The notes: generated from the sequence alone by a model not told the origin. DNA of 32,000 bases from Candidatus Jordarchaeales archaeon (GCA_038889235.1 JAWAHN010000001.1:734499-766498), one strand, 5' to 3'; positions 11,760-16,373 are shown, counted from the first letter of the stretch. Program-made: numbers and translations.

Positions 11760-11995
11760 TACCAGGAACACCCCTTCTAGGAGGAAACTACTTAGAAAGT
11801 AAGGACACCAACTAGATAAGCATTTTTCACAAAGCCGCATGAAGTTTTTATGTTTTATTCATTTTACGAGAATGTGTTACGTTAGATATATTCCAGAGTC
11901 CGCTTGTACAGGGCGCAAAACCATTTTGAGAAAAACTTTTTAGCTGTTTTTGTTCGATGGTTTCACGAGGTTCCAAACCCCCGAGGTGTTCAAGC

Positions 11996-12190
11996 ATGGT
12001 TAGAGGCAAACTTTCAGAGGACGAGAAAAACATAGTTAAAGAGGTAATGGACGAGTTGGGGCTAAGTGGAGGAAGAATCAAAATGCTTGTAGAGGCAGTG
12101 GGAGTCAGAACAGGTTTCGATAAGAAGAGGATGCGCGTGGCGGTCAAGCGAGCACTAATCGGGGGAGAGCCTACTGTAAGGAAGAAATGA
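11996..12190 (+). CDS. Small basic hypothetical protein (64 aa)
   Basis: ATG 11996 follows a GAGGTG RBS; MVRGKLSEDEKNIVKEVMDELGLSGGRIKMLVEAVGVRTGFDKKRMRVAVKRAL; ends 34 nt before hdrA. Confidence 0.65.
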   Translation: MVRGKLSEDEKNIVKEVMDELGLSGGRIKMLVEAVGVRTGFDKKRMRVAVKRALIGGEPTVRKK

Positions 12191-12224
12191 GAGAAAAACA
12201 GGTTGATTGGAGGTGGTTAAGAAA

Positions 12225-14189
12225 GTGGCTGAAAGAGGAAAGAAGGCAGAGGAGCCGGTCATTGGCGTCTATGTGTGCAAGTGAGGCGTTAACATCGGCG
12301 GAGTCATAGATACAGAAGCAGTGGCAGAGTATGCAAGTAAGCTGCCGAACGTGAAAGTAGCGAAGACATACTCATTCTTCTGCTCTGATCCTGGACAGAA
12401 GATAATAAAAGAGGACATTGAGACCCAAGGAATCAACAGGGTAGTAGTAGCGGCTTGCACGCCGAAAATACATGAGCCAACATACAGGGCATTGCTGCAG
12501 TCGGCGGGATTAAGCCCCTACTATTTCGAAATGGTGAACCTAAGAGAACACTGTTCTTGGGTCCACATGACAGATCCAAAAGCGGCAACAGAAAAAGCCA
12601 AGAAACTTGTAGCTGCAGGCGTGGCAAGAGCTAGACTGCTTGAAGACGTGCCCCAGAAAAAGTTACCTGTTGAACAAGCAGTCATGGTTATAGGCGGAGG
12701 CATAGCTGGTATAAGTGCGGCCCTTAGTGTAGCAAACCACGGGATAAAAGTTTACCTAGTGGAAAAGGAGCCAACCATTGGAGGACTGGCTGTTCGCCTA
12801 GATAGAACTTTCCCAACTGACGACTGTGCTATCTGAATACTGGCGCCGAAAATGGTTGAAGCAGCAAAGCATCCAAACATTCAGATCCTTTCGTACACAG
12901 AAGTTCTTGGAGTAGAAGGGGTGCCCGGAGCATACAAGGTAAAGCTTCTTAAAAAGCCAAGGTATGTGGATGAGAAAAAGTGCACTGGATGCGGCAGCTG
13001 CATGGAAGTCTGCCCAGTTGCAGTACCCGATGAGTTCAACTACGGATTGGGATACAGAAAAGCGATATACATACCATTCCCCCAAGCTGTCCCTAAGGTT
13101 GCACTAATATCGATGGATGACTGCATACAGTGCAAGTCCTGCCAGAAGGAGTGTAAGGCAGGAGCTATAGACTACGAGCAGAAACCGGAGGAAATTGAGC
13201 TAACTGTTGGGAGCATAATAGTTGCCACGGGGTTCGAAATATACGATATAGCTAAGTACGGCGATTACGGCTATGGACGGTTTGAAAACGTCATAACACA
13301 GATTGAACTAGAGAGGATGCTGAGTCCTACGGGACCAACTGGCGGAGCTGTGGTTAGAATTTCAGACAGGAAGCATCCAAAACGCATAGCTATGATTCAG
13401 TGTGTTGGATCTAGGGACATTAAAAGGAATCCTTACTGCTCAGAAGTATGCTGCATGGTCGCAGTCAAGAACGCTAAGATCATAAAACAGGAGAGCCCGG
13501 ATACTGAAGTAATCATCTTTTACATGGACATCAGAGGGATAGATGAAGGGCACGAAGAGTACTATTCGGCTACACGTGAATATGGTGTGATATTTGTGAG
13601 GGGAAGAGTCGCAGAAGTAATAGAAGATCCGGAAACCAAGAATCTCAAGCTTCTCGTTGAGAACACATTGACAGGAGAGCTAATGGAAATTGAAGTAGAC
13701 TTGTTAGTGCTGTCAGCGGCGGTAGTACCTTCTGAGGGAACGAAGAAAATAGCGCAGATCCTGGGGCTCAACAAAAGACCAAGTGGTTTCTTAGCACCAC
13801 AACACGTAGCTTTAAACCCCCAGGAGACGAAAAGCCCAGGAATATACATTTGCGGCGCTGCTTTAGGACCAAAGAACATACCCTATGCCGTTTCGAGCGC
13901 TAGGGCTGCCGCTGCTGCTGCAACGGCATGGGTGCTTTCAGGAGAAGTTTCAGTAGAAATGATGACACCAGAGGTTAACGAAGAACTTTGCGTCGGTTGC
14001 AGAAGGTGCGAAAGAACATGTCCCTTCGGTGCTATAAAGGTCATCGAGGGGAAAGCAGTCGTCAATGATGTGCGATGCAAAGGCTGCGGTTCTTGCGTGG
14101 CGTCATGCCCAGCCCATGCCCTAGACTTACGTTACTACAGAGATAAACAAATAATAGAGGAGCTGAAAGCTGTGATTGAAGCTCACTAA
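12225..14189 (+). CDS. hdrA: Heterodisulfide reductase subunit A, selenoprotein with two Sec (TGA 12282-12284 and 12834-12836), 654 aa
   Basis: GTG 12225 follows a GGAGGTG RBS. One frame reads IGVYVCK-U-GVNIG and FPTDDCAI-U-ILAPKMV, joining track ORFs 12321..12836 and 12852..14189. Both TGAs occupy conserved Cys positions. FAD motif GGGIAG, multiple CxxCxxCxxxCP motifs, and a SECIS-like hairpin downstream. Confidence 0.95.
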
Positions 14190-14274
14190 TTGAGGGGGCC
14201 GATGACCACGCCAGCGAAACCCTTTAAAGGGAGCTGGCGTGGAAGGCACTGGCTAGCGGCCAGGAAACCCTCAA
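14190..14274 (+). promoter_or_regulatory. SECIS element of hdrA (3' UTR)
   Basis: ATGA (14202-14205), then a 10-bp stem CCACGCCAGC/GCTGGCGTGG, a GAAA/A internal loop and a CCC-TTTAAA-GGG apical stem. The whole element is closed by TTGAGGG/CCCTCAA. Confidence 0.85.
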
Positions 14275-14365
14275 TAACTCATCTACTTATACTCATGCGT
14301 AAACACATTGCAAGAGTAAACGTTTTATAATACTGCTTTTGAAAAAGTCCACCGAGGTGTGGCGG

Positions 14366-14782
14366 ATGGATACGCCGAAATTTAGCATAGTGTCTTTCTG
14401 TTGCTGGAAGTGAGGCTACGGTGCCAGCGATCTAACAGGCGTTTCTAGGGTACAATATGACCCTTCGGTGATGATAGTGCGAGTCAAGTGTACTGGAAGA
14501 GTCGATGTTAAACATATCCTGGAGGCAATAAGGCATGGCGTGGATGGCGTCATGGTTGTCGGTTGACACCCAGGCGAGTGCGATTTTGGTGACGGAAACA
14601 TAAAAGCAAGGCAACGAGTAGAGTTCGCAAAGAAAGTGCTTGACAAAGTTGGTCTTGGAGGAGACAGGGTTAACATGTACAATGTCTCAGCCGCCGAGAT
14701 TGGAAAATTCAGAGATGCAATAGTAGATATGGTTGGAAAAATAGAGAAACTTGGTCCAAACCCCCTGAAAGCCAAAAAGTAA
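14366..14782 (+). CDS. mvhD: MvhD/VhuD-type [2Fe-2S] hydrogenase delta subunit, selenoprotein with two Sec (TGA 14411-14413 and 14564-14566), 138 aa
   Basis: Absent from the ORF track. Reads MDTPKFSIVSFCCWK-U-GYGASDLTGVSRVQYDPSVMIVRVKCTGRVD...VMVVG-U-HPGECDFGDGN...GPNPLKAKK. Both TGAs are at conserved Cys positions of the MvhD family; GAGGTG RBS. Confidence 0.95.
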
Positions 14783-14859
14783 CCCACTTTAAAAGCGCAG
14801 GGAATGAGCCTCAGGCCTAAAGCAGGTGCCTGAGGTGACTGGCCCTCGTAAGCGGTGGG
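14783..14859 (+). promoter_or_regulatory. Eukaryote-type SECIS element of mvhD (3' UTR)
   Basis: ATGA 14804-14807 pairs against TGAC 14836-14839 as a tandem G.A/A.G quartet. Helix II is CCTCAGGC/GCCTGAGG, AAA at 14819-14821 lies in the apical loop, helix I is AGGG/CCCT, and the outer closure is CCCAC/GTGGG. Confidence 0.88.
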
Positions 14860-14954
14860 CCAATCACAATTTATATAATTGTAAAATGTTTTCAGGTGTG
14901 ACGAAAAAAGAGAAGGTAAAATGTTAGCGGTCTTGGGTCTGGAGGGTTTCCAAG

Positions 14955-16373
14955 TTGATCGATCTTAGATGGAAAGTTGATGCCATTACCGAAGCTGCGG
15001 ATAGCTTTAGAGTCAGAGCGTTCTTCACTGGTGAAAAAGAGATAGTAGAAGCAGGGAAATTCTCTAAAGAAGAGTACGAGAAATATTTAGACTACCTGCT
15101 AGAGGACGAGTACAGTAGGAGGCTTGTTCTCAGGGTCATTAGGGAAAAAGGAAGTATTACCTTTAACGAAATAGCTCGTGAGCTGGGTATTTCCAGGATT
15201 GAAGTTGCCAGACACGTTGGCTTACTGAGATACGAGGGATTAATCGAGCTTAAGGAAAACGAAGTTGTAGTCGCCAAGAGTGAGGTGTTGCAGAGGACAC
15301 CCTATGAAAAAATAAAGTTCATTGTCGAGGAAGGATTGTGCACTGGGTGCGGCGGATGCATCGCAGCTTGTCCTGTTCGGGCTATAACCTTCGTCAATGA
15401 AAAGCCCGTAATAGACGAAGAGAAGTGCATAGGTTGCGGTATTTGCAACGTTCATTGTCCAAGGACGTTTTTCCCCATGAGCTTTCTCAGGGAGAGTTTG
15501 AAGGGGAGCCCGGTAAACTTAGAAGCAGAAGGTATATCTTTCTTTAGGAAGGCGTATATGGCGCAGACAACTAAGGAAAAGATAAGACAAGTTTGCCAGG
15601 ACGGAGGAATTGTAACATCAATTCTGGCCTATCTTTTCGATAAAGGTATGATAGATTGCGCTATTGGTGTCAAGAAAGTCGATGAGACATGGAAAACGCA
15701 AGCCGTAGTGGTTACCAATATAGAGGAGTTGCTCGAAACTGCAGGCACTAAGTACACGGTAACTCCAACTATTTCGGCACTTGAAGAAGTCAAAAGAAGG
15801 GGATTGAAGAGAGTTGCTGTTGTAGGAGTACCCTGCCAGATACACGCAATCAGGAAGGCAGAAGCATACTCTTCGGAACTTTTGGCCTCACTAGGAAAAG
15901 TGATCGTTTCAATAGGGATATTTTGCATGGAAAACTTTGGGCATGAAACATTGAGAGAAATAGTTGAGGGACGGCTTGGCGTAAAGATCGAAGAAGTAAC
16001 TAAATGTAACATAGACAAAGGTAAGTTCTTCGTTCGTACAAAAAGCGGAGAGGAGAGGTCAATACCAGTTAAGGAGATATCTGAACTTGCACGACACGCT
16101 TGTCATTACTGCCCAGACCTCTCGAACGAGCTTGCAGACATTTCTGTAGGCTCCATCGGGTCGCCAAAAGGTTGGTCAACTGTAATCGTGAGAACTGAGA
16201 AAGGAGAGGAAATATTTGATGGCGCAGTGAAAGAGGGCTATATAACAGTTAATCCACTGCCGAGTGATGGTATGGATCTACTCCAAAAGTTGGCTAGGGG
16301 CAAGAGAAAGAGGAACCTCGAGACATTAAACAAAAGAGCAGAGGAAAGAAAATATGCAACATTAATACTATGA
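14955..16373 (+). CDS. FrhB/FdhB-family F420-interacting oxidoreductase subunit with N-terminal winged-helix region and 2x[4Fe-4S] ferredoxin domain
   Basis: CTGCGGCIAACP and CIGCGICNVHCP; QDGGIVT, AGTKY, VGVPCQ, IGIFCME, CHYCPDL and ADISVGS motifs; residues ~55-100 form an HTH (ITFNEIARELGISRIEVARHVGLL). Confidence 0.88.
   Translation: MIDLRWKVDAITEAADSFRVRAFFTGEKEIVEAGKFSKEEYEKYLDYLLEDEYSRRLVLRVIREKGSITFNEIARELGISRIEVARHVGLLRYEGLIELKENEVVVAKSEVLQRTPYEKIKFIVEEGLCTGCGGCIAACPVRAITFVNEKPVIDEEKCIGCGICNVHCPRTFFPMSFLRESLKGSPVNLEAEGISFFRKAYMAQTTKEKIRQVCQDGGIVTSILAYLFDKGMIDCAIGVKKVDETWKTQAVVVTNIEELLETAGTKYTVTPTISALEEVKRRGLKRVAVVGVPCQIHAIRKAEAYSSELLASLGKVIVSIGIFCMENFGHETLREIVEGRLGVKIEEVTKCNIDKGKFFVRTKSGEERSIPVKEISELARHACHYCPDLSNELADISVGSIGSPKGWSTVIVRTEKGEEIFDGAVKEGYITVNPLPSDGMDLLQKLARGKRKRNLETLNKRAEERKYATLIL

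Follow-up and report, generated by a model that had tools for sequence, protein, structure and literature searches.

The element that follows hdrA in the genome of a Candidatus Jordarchaeales archaeon is most probably the SECIS of hdrA itself, an element of the known eukaryote-like Asgard type which lies in the hdrA 3' UTR, 1 nt past the stop codon, and whose apical closure reproduces the top of the euryarchaeal SECIS. The window analysed here is a stretch of 32,000 nucleotides (GCA_038889235.1 JAWAHN010000001.1:734499-766498); positions are counted from its first letter and all features described lie on the + strand.

The hdrA-mvhD locus and its genome

The source genome is a metagenome-assembled genome of 2.14 Mb in 8 contigs, which belongs to the Asgard class Jordarchaeia and originates from a hot spring; the DNA runs containing the stretch are likewise hot-spring metagenomes. 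For comparison eleven species genomes of the class were used, namely the species of the window, three congeners, a sister genus and six species of a sister family which includes Ca. Jordarchaeum madagascariense and a closed 'Freyarchaeota' chromosome.

The gene hdrA (heterodisulfide reductase subunit A) occupies 12225..14189 when TGA is translated as U, with GTG at 12225 as the putative start codon. Its two in-frame TGA codons, presumably read as Sec, are located at 12282-12284 (VCK-U-G) and 12834-12836 (DCAI-U) and sit at conserved Cys positions of a product with FAD/NAD and 4Fe-4S domains (Pfam). In the orthologues the DCxIU position is kept in 13 out of 13 and the CxUG position in 12 out of 13 sequences. 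The following gene, mvhD/vhuD (FlpD family; PF02662, E 2.2e-45), spans 14366..14783 and also harbours two in-frame TGA codons (14411-14413 and 14564-14566). It is followed by a SECIS at 14794..14864, in which an AUGA (14804-14807), a 9-bp stem, an 11-nt loop (CUAAAGCAGGU), a UGA and an accessory hairpin with the loop UAAG can be recognized. Each of the two genes of the cluster is thus followed by a SECIS of its own, as an earlier note on this DNA had proposed.

Genes for Sec synthesis are present in the genome: SepSecS was found with 497.6 bits, above the curated cut-off, and selD is also encoded. In total six SECIS-like elements were identified, after hdrA, mvhD, a second mvhD, selD, vhuU and a small unknown ORF. 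ARAGORN did not find a tRNA-Sec in the genome, and since it called only seven tRNAs and the tRNA genes of the Jordarchaeia lineage are rich in introns, this absence is uninformative.

Secondary structure of the hdrA element

The region 14185-14285 folds with a minimum free energy of -48.4 kcal/mol (z = -5.81), and none of 200 shuffled sequences was as stable. The motifs which the earlier note had described at the 3' end of hdrA are all found in this stable fold (z -5.8), at the positions where it had placed them.

In the fold a three-way junction is closed by an outer helix, the 5' strand of which (14189..14196) pairs with the 3' strand CCCUCAAU (14268..14275), and whose first base, 14189, is the final A of the hdrA stop codon. 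The first arm starts with helix I, the C-stem of a predicted kink-turn, in which GCC (14198..14200) pairs with GGC (14245-14247); this helix comprises 3 bp in the genus of the window and 4 bp in the sister family. The bulged strand of the kink-turn (14201..14205) consists of G-A-U (L1-L3) followed by G14204 and A14205, so that the AUGA motif at 14202-14205 faces AA at 14243-14244, and the non-bulged strand (14243..14247) consists of A14243 (2n) and A14244 (1n) followed by the GGC of helix I. Helix II, indicated by fold and covariation, is formed by CCACGCCAGC (14206..14215) and GCUGGCGUGG (14233..14242) and has 10 bp, eight of which are G-C pairs. It carries the GAAA adenine motif (14216..14219), which is a 5' bulge in the window and the start of an open apical loop in the orthologues. 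The predicted top (14220..14232) is methanogen-like and comprises a ministem of CCC (14220-14222) paired with GGG (14229-14231), the loop UUUAAA and a 3' bulged A (A14232).

The second arm of the junction is an accessory hairpin (hp2) at 14249..14263 with the sequence CUGGCU-AGC-GGCCAG, found in the fold and conserved. Both hp2 and the outer helix lie within the region that the earlier note covered but were not mentioned there; both are conserved.

Conservation and covariation

A homologous element is located directly 3' of the hdrA stop codon in the three congeners, the sister genus, the six sister-family species and two metagenome contigs. Together with the window this gives a set of 13 hdrA elements, since 12 orthologous elements (eight of them from the sister family) could be added. 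A covariance model built from the eight sister-family elements alone scores the element of the window with 29.2 bits, corresponding to an E-value of 1.9e-5 in the fetched loci and of 4.7e-4 genome-wide, where it is the sole match. In all 11 species genomes this model has exactly one match, always directly after a Sec-containing hdrA, and it also detects an mvhD SECIS (E 0.003).

Standard pairs are found in 95.8% of the pair cells of the 13 elements versus 31-50% with slid partners, and the observed covariation score was reached by none of 500 shuffles; these counts come from a model-based alignment, which is biased towards the structure of the model, and each sequence also folds in this way individually. 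MAFFT alignments (of the two families and of five hybrid tops) put the 3' strands out of register and were not used for pair counts. The earlier note had proposed looking for covariation across the hdrA 3' UTRs of relatives, and it was found: all eight modelled pairs of helix II change on both sides, with 99% of the cells paired in the 13 elements. The outer helix of the orthologues differs in sequence but is found at the same place, and four out of six of its pairs are changed on both sides. In hp2 four pairs are invariant and one is compensatory, and the loop AGC is invariant in the hdrA family. According to the earlier note its reading would fall if AUGA or GAA/A were not conserved in orthologous UTRs. 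The AUGA and the 5' GAAA are conserved, while the full GAA/A motif is not conserved in the 12 orthologues.

The elements following hdrA in a second Asgard class (L012 and L013) were left out of the counts, and the sister-family model misses them. They show the same three-way layout, with AGGA replacing AUGA.

The predicted kink-turn foot

The register of the foot was fixed by anchoring each of the 13 sequences on the invariant G of UGA. This reveals a common layout with a C-stem of 3-4 bp, a 3-base bulge ending in U, a G.A pair, a second purine pair, a variable 3b.3n position and eight Watson-Crick pairs. The G (1b) and the A (1n) of the G.A pair are invariant in the 13 elements. The second purine pair is A.G in ten of them and A.A in the window and two congeners; accordingly three of the four species within the genus have A as the 2n base, G being found everywhere else, and one congener has A.G exactly at the place of the A.A of the window. 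Because the orthologues fix the AUGA_AA register, with G.A followed by A.A, the bulged C which the earlier note had thought necessary for the full quartet is not needed. By its sequence, the foot of the hdrA element can be assigned to the kink-turn layout in the AUGA_AA variant, a variant already published for Asgard hdrA/frhD elements (PMC11227280).

A common plan of the SECIS elements

The accessory hairpin is not a peculiarity of the hdrA element. It follows all six SECIS-like elements of the genome and is present in 50 of the 54 distinct SECIS-pattern matches in the fetched Asgard loci, 43 of which also have an outer helix enclosing both arms. On 23 Loki-type elements the three-way junction is paired in 93.5% of the cells, with compensatory change in 11 out of 22 pairs. 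The text of PMC11227280 and of PMC4989117 contains no description of the accessory hairpin or the outer helix.

A model built from these 23 Loki-type elements was used to search 1 kb around both gene ends. It finds the mvhD SECIS with 16.1 bits and the hdrA element (14190-14277) with 14.0 bits, and everything else in the same kilobase stays at or below 3 bits; on the whole genome nothing is significant with this model, so scores of 14-16 bits are informative locally only. Rfam assigns no family, and thus no SECIS, to the window at the gathering score. For 14100-14950 with E up to 10, a search including the eukaryotic SECIS RF00031 likewise gives no SECIS and only chance matches to miRNAs and sRNAs. 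Of the model scoring which the earlier note had suggested, the eukaryotic Rfam model thus gives no match, and our own Loki-type model detects the hdrA element at its locus, with a score that is insignificant genome-wide.

The hdrA and mvhD SECIS elements are of the same Asgard architecture, consisting of a kink-turn, a stem of 9-10 bp, an NNAAAG motif and the accessory hairpin. Therefore the earlier claim that two architectures coexist in this cluster, a purely eukaryote-type one after mvhD and a hybrid one after hdrA, is not supported: the two elements follow a common plan and obtain nearly equal scores with the Loki-type model.

The closed apical part

In all six SECIS-like elements of the genome the loop begins with an NNAAAG-like sequence, and the five besides that of hdrA are of the open-loop type. 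The hdrA elements of the sister family have an open loop (CGAAAGCNNUGA). In the genus of the window a small ministem is possible in the hdrA elements, with species-specific pairs in the four species (GCU/AGC, GC/GC, GCC/GGC and CCC/GGG). The AAA of the GAAA is invariant in the 13 orthologous elements, but three G-C pairs together with a 3' bulged A are found in the window only, and its top lies in an 11-nt insertion carried by the window alone among the 13 aligned elements.

To search for such tops a descriptor was derived from the published consensus (a lower stem of 8 bp or more, GAA with up to one additional base, a short loop closed by three S-S pairs, and an A on the 3' side). The hdrA element is its sole match in the 2.14-Mb genome, and even when relaxed the descriptor does not match any of the 12 orthologous hdrA elements. 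Apart from its position and the conserved vhuU cases described below, the lone match carries little weight, because reversed sequences give about 2 matches per 4.3 Mb. With the strictly canonical GAA_A, allowing no extra base, there are 0 matches in the genome. The GAA/A internal loop of the earlier note thus stands as far as its position, the three G-C pairs and the AU-rich loop are concerned, but the 5' bulge is GAAA, of 4 nt, and the canonical GAA descriptor finds nothing.

In 1.6 Mb of fetched loci, the unrelaxed descriptor, with its one additional base allowed, finds only the hdrA element of the window and four vhuU SECIS elements of the sister family. These vhuU elements (4 out of 4 sister-family species) consist of (U)UGA, a 10-bp stem, GAAA, CCC, a 6- or 9-nt loop, GGG, A, the return strand and GA, and their (U)UGA doubles as the vhuU stop codon. 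Among the four, the lower stem changes in a compensatory way and the loop varies in sequence and length, with CCC/GGG and the bulged A being kept. Open loops characterise the vhuU SECIS both in the genus of the window and in the sister genus. As four sister-family species keep the combination in their vhuU SECIS, the hybrid design recurs in the class Jordarchaeia and is not a coincidence of one sequence. In this sense the description of the hdrA element as a hybrid holds: a eukaryote-like foot is combined with a top fitting the euryarchaeal consensus (10-bp G+C-rich stem, GAA(A)/A, three G-C pairs and AU loop).

By parsimony the closed top of the hdrA element is derived and not ancestral, because it is confined to the lineage of the window and is located in an insertion missing from the other hdrA elements. 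Being missing from all 12 orthologues, it may be selectively neutral. Since the closed form is derived in hdrA and the sister family has it as a conserved feature of its vhuU SECIS, the Sec machinery of the class seems to accept open-loop and closed tops alike. The GAAA of the window is, by its sequence, homologous to the A-rich motif of all orthologues, and this homology suggests a link between the GAA adenines of methanogens and the eukaryotic AAR motif.

Thermoadaptation was considered as a cause of the closed top and rejected: conserved closed vhuU tops occur in genomes not recorded as originating from hot springs, while the hot-spring genome studied here has open tops in all its SECIS-like elements except that of hdrA.

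Archaeal and eukaryotic SECIS elements have long been described as unrelated. We would put forward, as a tentative and rather doubtful generalisation, that the apex of hdrA and vhuU SECIS orthologues alternates between two forms, an adenine-rich loop left open and a methanogen-style top that is closed, with no change in the kink-turn foot beneath, and that this has happened at least two independent times, once in the hdrA of the window and once in the vhuU of the sister family. Provided that the open and the closed form both work, the methanogen GAA_A adenines could be the eukaryotic AAR, held ten pairs above the kink-turn. Archaeal and eukaryotic SECIS would then be one design, from which the euryarchaeal form could have arisen by closure of the loop and a later loss of the need for the foot.

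Spacer and transcription

Each of the 11 Jordarchaeia genomes has a SECIS belonging to hdrA itself. The spacer between hdrA and mvhD of the window has 176 nt. In the same genome a second Sec-containing hdrA-mvhD pair is separated by 12 nt and has a single SECIS after mvhD, which indicates that the dedicated hdrA element goes with the long spacer. The fetched Loki-type loci have hdrA-vhuD spacers of 25-40 nt with no element inside. A single SECIS after vhuD is also known for the Loki hdrA-vhuD pairs (Mariotti et al. 2016, PMC4989117), and almost all Asgard pairs of hdrA with vhuD/frhD share one SECIS (Huang, Xiao & Zhang 2024, PMC11227280).

Between the element and mvhD a block, GAGTAAAYGTTTTATAATAC...GTCCACCGAGGTG, is conserved in the four congeneric species, unlike the variable part of the spacer that precedes it. 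This block includes a candidate archaeal TATA box for mvhD, TTTTATAATA (14323..14332), and a Shine-Dalgarno-like GAGGTG. It seems therefore that mvhD could be transcribed on its own, and hdrA probably has its own SECIS because many hdrA transcripts would not reach the SECIS of mvhD.

In metatranscriptome RNA libraries one contig from a 96%-identical relative covers 12230-14377, that is hdrA, the element and the spacer up to the start of mvhD. A second contig, also from a 96%-identical relative, covers 14401-14983, and nothing was found on 11900-12229. No indel is reported for the RNA contigs within 14194-14292. The contigs break at 14377/14401 with a depth of 21.9 versus 11.1, although assembled contigs cannot show transcript ends. 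Such data agree with the view that the hdrA RNA includes the element.

Proposed function and alternative explanations

In eukaryotes the kink-turn of the SECIS is bound by an L7Ae-domain protein and the AAR motif is required; SBP2 is not known from archaea. By analogy the kink-turn foot of the hdrA element would recruit a kink-turn-binding factor and the adenines would contact the Sec-specific elongation machinery, whereby EFSec would supply Sec-tRNA at both hdrA UGA codons. These codons lie 1.9 and 1.4 kb before the element and are presumably decoded as Sec via it. The parts that matter would be the kink-turn and two or three adenines ten pairs above it, and the closed top would hold these adenines in a defined bulge, either improving function or being tolerated. 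The adenines of the hdrA element would be counterparts of the eukaryotic AAR and likewise of the two invariant GAA adenines of the methanogen SECIS, which has a structure-dependent KTL motif (PMC11881835).

Several other explanations have to be weighed against a SECIS of hdrA with a derived top. The earlier note had taken the element for a possible structural intermediate. A true evolutionary intermediate would be a relic of the transition between the Asgard/eukaryote-like and the euryarchaeal SECIS. Its hdrA-SECIS-mvhD-SECIS layout and its hybrid fold would then go back to an ancestor in common with the hdrA/vhuD elements of the Methanococcales. In methanococci each gene has its own SECIS, a layout which resembles the one found here and differs from the shared SECIS of Loki. 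The fold also has every feature listed for the methanococcal hdrA/vhuD elements (short extra stem, AUGA versus [G/A]A, 10-bp stem, GAA_A and three S-S pairs), and it was proposed that methanogens acquired genes together with their SECIS from Asgard archaea (Huang et al., PMC11227280). However, the closed hdrA top is without counterpart in the three congeners, the sister genus and the eight sister-family elements, which by parsimony makes it derived, and the 5' bulge is GAAA, not GAA. We therefore consider an ancestral hybrid improbable. As an evolutionary relic the intermediate is not supported, given that none of the 12 orthologues combines a 3' bulged A with a three-G-C ministem and that the 11-nt insertion is restricted to the window. 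The element might also work in the methanogen mode, with the GAAA/A bulge and the G-C clamp as functional core and a dispensable AUGA/AA foot, and indeed its top fits the minimal functional methanogen SECIS, which comprises a basal stem, a KTL with two adenines, an apical G-C clamp and an AU-rich loop of 4-6 nt (PMC11881835). This we regard as more improbable still, as the foot (G.A, C-stem and AUGA) is the most conserved part across the 13 hdrA elements, the 3' bulged A required in the methanogen element (PMC11881835) is missing from 12 of the 13, and a like foot carries an open loop in the five further SECIS-like elements of the genome.

The chance that the spacer element serves mvhD, in addition to or instead of hdrA, by acting from the 5' side on the UGA at 14411, which it precedes by 137 nt, is slight and hardly differs from that of the methanogen mode. 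A SECIS function in the 5' UTR is known from Methanococcus (PMC11881835), and the RNA contig continues from hdrA through the spacer into mvhD. On the other hand mvhD has its own complete SECIS directly after its stop codon in all relatives, and the conserved TATA-like box is located between the element and mvhD, so that the element, if this box is a promoter, would lie outside an mvhD transcript. Least probable of all is that the structure is not a SECIS but another 3'-end structure, such as a terminator, a stability element or a protein-binding regulatory RNA, which merely happens to follow hdrA. A highly stable structure at the end of a gene, pyrimidine-rich tracts behind the element in the congeners and the fact that no SECIS library model is significant genome-wide could be explained in this way. 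But all SECIS hallmarks are present at the correct spacing, the accessory hairpin and the NNAAAG motif are common to the elements after mvhD, selD and vhuU, the single copy per genome is found only after a Sec-containing hdrA (11 out of 11 genomes), and the hdrA-derived model recognizes the mvhD SECIS as well (E 0.003).

Significance of the locus

In comparison with the papers cited here, three points are new: a dedicated hdrA SECIS throughout Jordarchaeia, Asgard elements in which the AUGA frame occurs together with a purine bulge and three S-S pairs, and evidence of an interchange of open and closed tops among orthologues. This corrects a generalisation, because the hdrA of Jordarchaeia does not share the SECIS of its neighbour, and the working model of the Asgard SECIS gains an accessory hairpin and a three-way junction. 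The locus bears on the relationship between the archaeal and the eukaryotic Sec signal. Close relatives offer a natural series of an open loop, a ministem and a full methanogen-like top on a conserved kink-turn foot, and it shows that the methanogen form can be reached from the Asgard form by a short mutational path, in the direction proposed by Huang et al. (PMC11227280). The homology of the adenines between the SECIS types can be tested with the existing Methanococcus maripaludis reporter (PMC9622424, PMC11881835). Should the closed top turn out to be neutral and merely decorative, what is left is the well-supported annotation of a known element type.

Comparison with known SECIS types

The hdrA element is a member of the Asgard eSECIS-like family. 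For type II of this family limits of 7-15 bp for the upper stem, 4-12 nt for the bulge, 2-8 bp for the ministem and 2-6 nt for the loop were given (PMC11227280), and with an upper stem of 10 bp, GAAA plus A, a ministem of 3-4 bp and a loop of 6 or 4 nt the element lies within all of them. With the Asgard eSECIS-like type II elements, or lokiSECIS (PMC11227280, PMC4989117), it shares the location in the 3' UTR directly after a selenoprotein gene, the AUGA before and the [G/A]A after the stem, and the adenines at the top of the stem. It differs in that hdrA has its own element here, whereas the published pairs (almost) always share one after the second gene, and its stem has 10 bp versus 9 bp in Loki. 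Furthermore, its bulge and ministem also satisfy the euryarchaeal consensus, although the AUGA frame, a purine bulge and three S-S pairs together were reported as not found in Asgard archaea (Huang et al., PMC11227280).

The methanococcal hdrA/vhuD SECIS elements are known to carry an AUGA_[G/A]A frame (PMC4989117, PMC11227280). Compared with the hdrA and vhuD elements of Methanococcales and Methanopyrus ([A/G]UGA_[G/A]A frame), the hdrA element shows the same short extra stem, AUGA versus purine-A, G+C-rich stem of about 10 bp, purine bulge with two adenines, single 3' A, three G-C pairs and short AU-rich loop, and there is one SECIS per gene in both cases; this is a likeness to the published description and not one seen in an alignment. 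Unlike these elements it has GAAA instead of GAA in the 5' bulge and sits in the Asgard three-way junction. Moreover, what the hdrA orthologues conserve is the foot and not the top, the reverse of the situation in methanogens. Therefore the element is not a strict member of the euryarchaeal type: stem, G-C pairs and AU loop agree with it, but the bulge (GAAA) and the conservation (0 out of 12 hdrA orthologues) do not.

With the eukaryotic type II (form 2) SECIS, RF00031, the element shares the kink-turn core with AUGA, the adenines in a 5' bulge below a ministem, the location in the 3' UTR and presumably the action over kilobases. Unlike the eukaryotic elements it is not recognized by the Rfam model (E up to 10), and it differs from them in the shorter helix II of 10 bp, in A.A instead of A.G at the second sheared pair and in a base that forms a three-way junction and not a plain helix I. 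Finally, as far as the sequence alone allows a comparison, the foot resembles the kink-turn and k-junction motifs known as L7Ae-type sites: a C-stem, a 3-base bulge and a G.A pair followed by a second purine-purine pair lead into a Watson-Crick stem. The second pair of the window is A.A, differing from the canonical tandem of sheared G.A/A.G pairs, and the short C-stem of the hdrA element ends, as in k-junctions, on a three-way junction.

Kink-turn hairpin within a three-way junction

A second, accessory hairpin stands beside the kink-turn arm in the SECIS elements of hdrA and mvhD in the window, at 14249-14263 in the former and at 14839-14862 in the latter. Such a hairpin, of 4-8 bp and with (A/U)GC in its loop, lies directly 3' of almost every Asgard SECIS-like match in the loci examined (about 50 elements in loci L014-L060 and L125-L144). 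In most of these matches an outer helix encloses both hairpins, and in the Loki-type elements, i.e. Asgard SECIS resembling lokiSECIS, this helix is conserved in sequence as CCGAAA...UUUCGG. Because the accessory hairpin and the kink-turn hairpin share an enclosing helix, the latter represents one arm of a three-way junction. As far as the SECIS literature was available to us, its text, figures aside, contains no description of such a junction in Asgard elements.

The top of the window's hdrA element (GAAA, CCC...GGG, A), together with the 10-bp stem below it, is also present in the vhuU SECIS of four species from the sister family, the next family of Jordarchaeia, which holds Ca. Jordarchaeum madagascariense (L208:1804-1855 and L211:1805-1856, plus strand; L209:1400-1451 and L210:1400-1454, minus strand). 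In these four species the vhuU stop codon UGA itself forms part of the element as its kink-turn core. The vhuU SECIS of the window's genus and of its sister genus have an open loop.

Expression of hdrA and mvhD

Between hdrA and mvhD of the window, four species of the genus share a conserved block at 14300-14365; 5' of this block the spacer is variable. The block includes TTTTATAATA (14323-14332) and a GAGGTG preceding the mvhD start codon, and is a candidate mvhD promoter. An RNA-library contig starts at 12230, 5 nt past the predicted GTG start of hdrA (12225), and nothing from this library lies on the upstream stretch 11900-12229. This start hints at an hdrA mRNA that is leaderless or has a very short leader.

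Further selenocysteine codons and hdrA-mvhD pairs

In the window's own genome, the stretch L200:1900-2350 (C1:85200-85650 of genome G000) contains an ORF of about 110 aa with one in-frame TGA (..VYSURGS..) and, 3' of it, a SECIS-like element (AUGA at C1:85547) that also has an accessory hairpin. The ORF has no Pfam match and may encode a small selenoprotein outside the listed families.

An HdrA with TGA at both positions known from the window's hdrA is encoded in a MAG from groundwater whose title is 'Methanobacteriota archaeon' (L197; G061:C147:7417-12333), and an MvhD with two TGA codons begins about 10 nt after this gene. Either selenocysteine use extends beyond the archaeal lineages given in reviews or this MAG is mislabelled.

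The hdrA-mvhD spacer of a second Asgard class also contains a three-way structure (L012:1382-1476 and L013:1382-1476, both minus strand); its loop is rich in A, and AGGA replaces the AUGA of the other elements. Neither copy is matched by the covariance model of the sister-family hdrA elements. The window's genome harbours, outside the window, another hdrA-mvhD pair (L116; C1:439866-441715) that contains selenocysteine codons; it has a spacer of 12 nt and one SECIS, 3' of mvhD. This arrangement matches the shared SECIS of the Loki-type.
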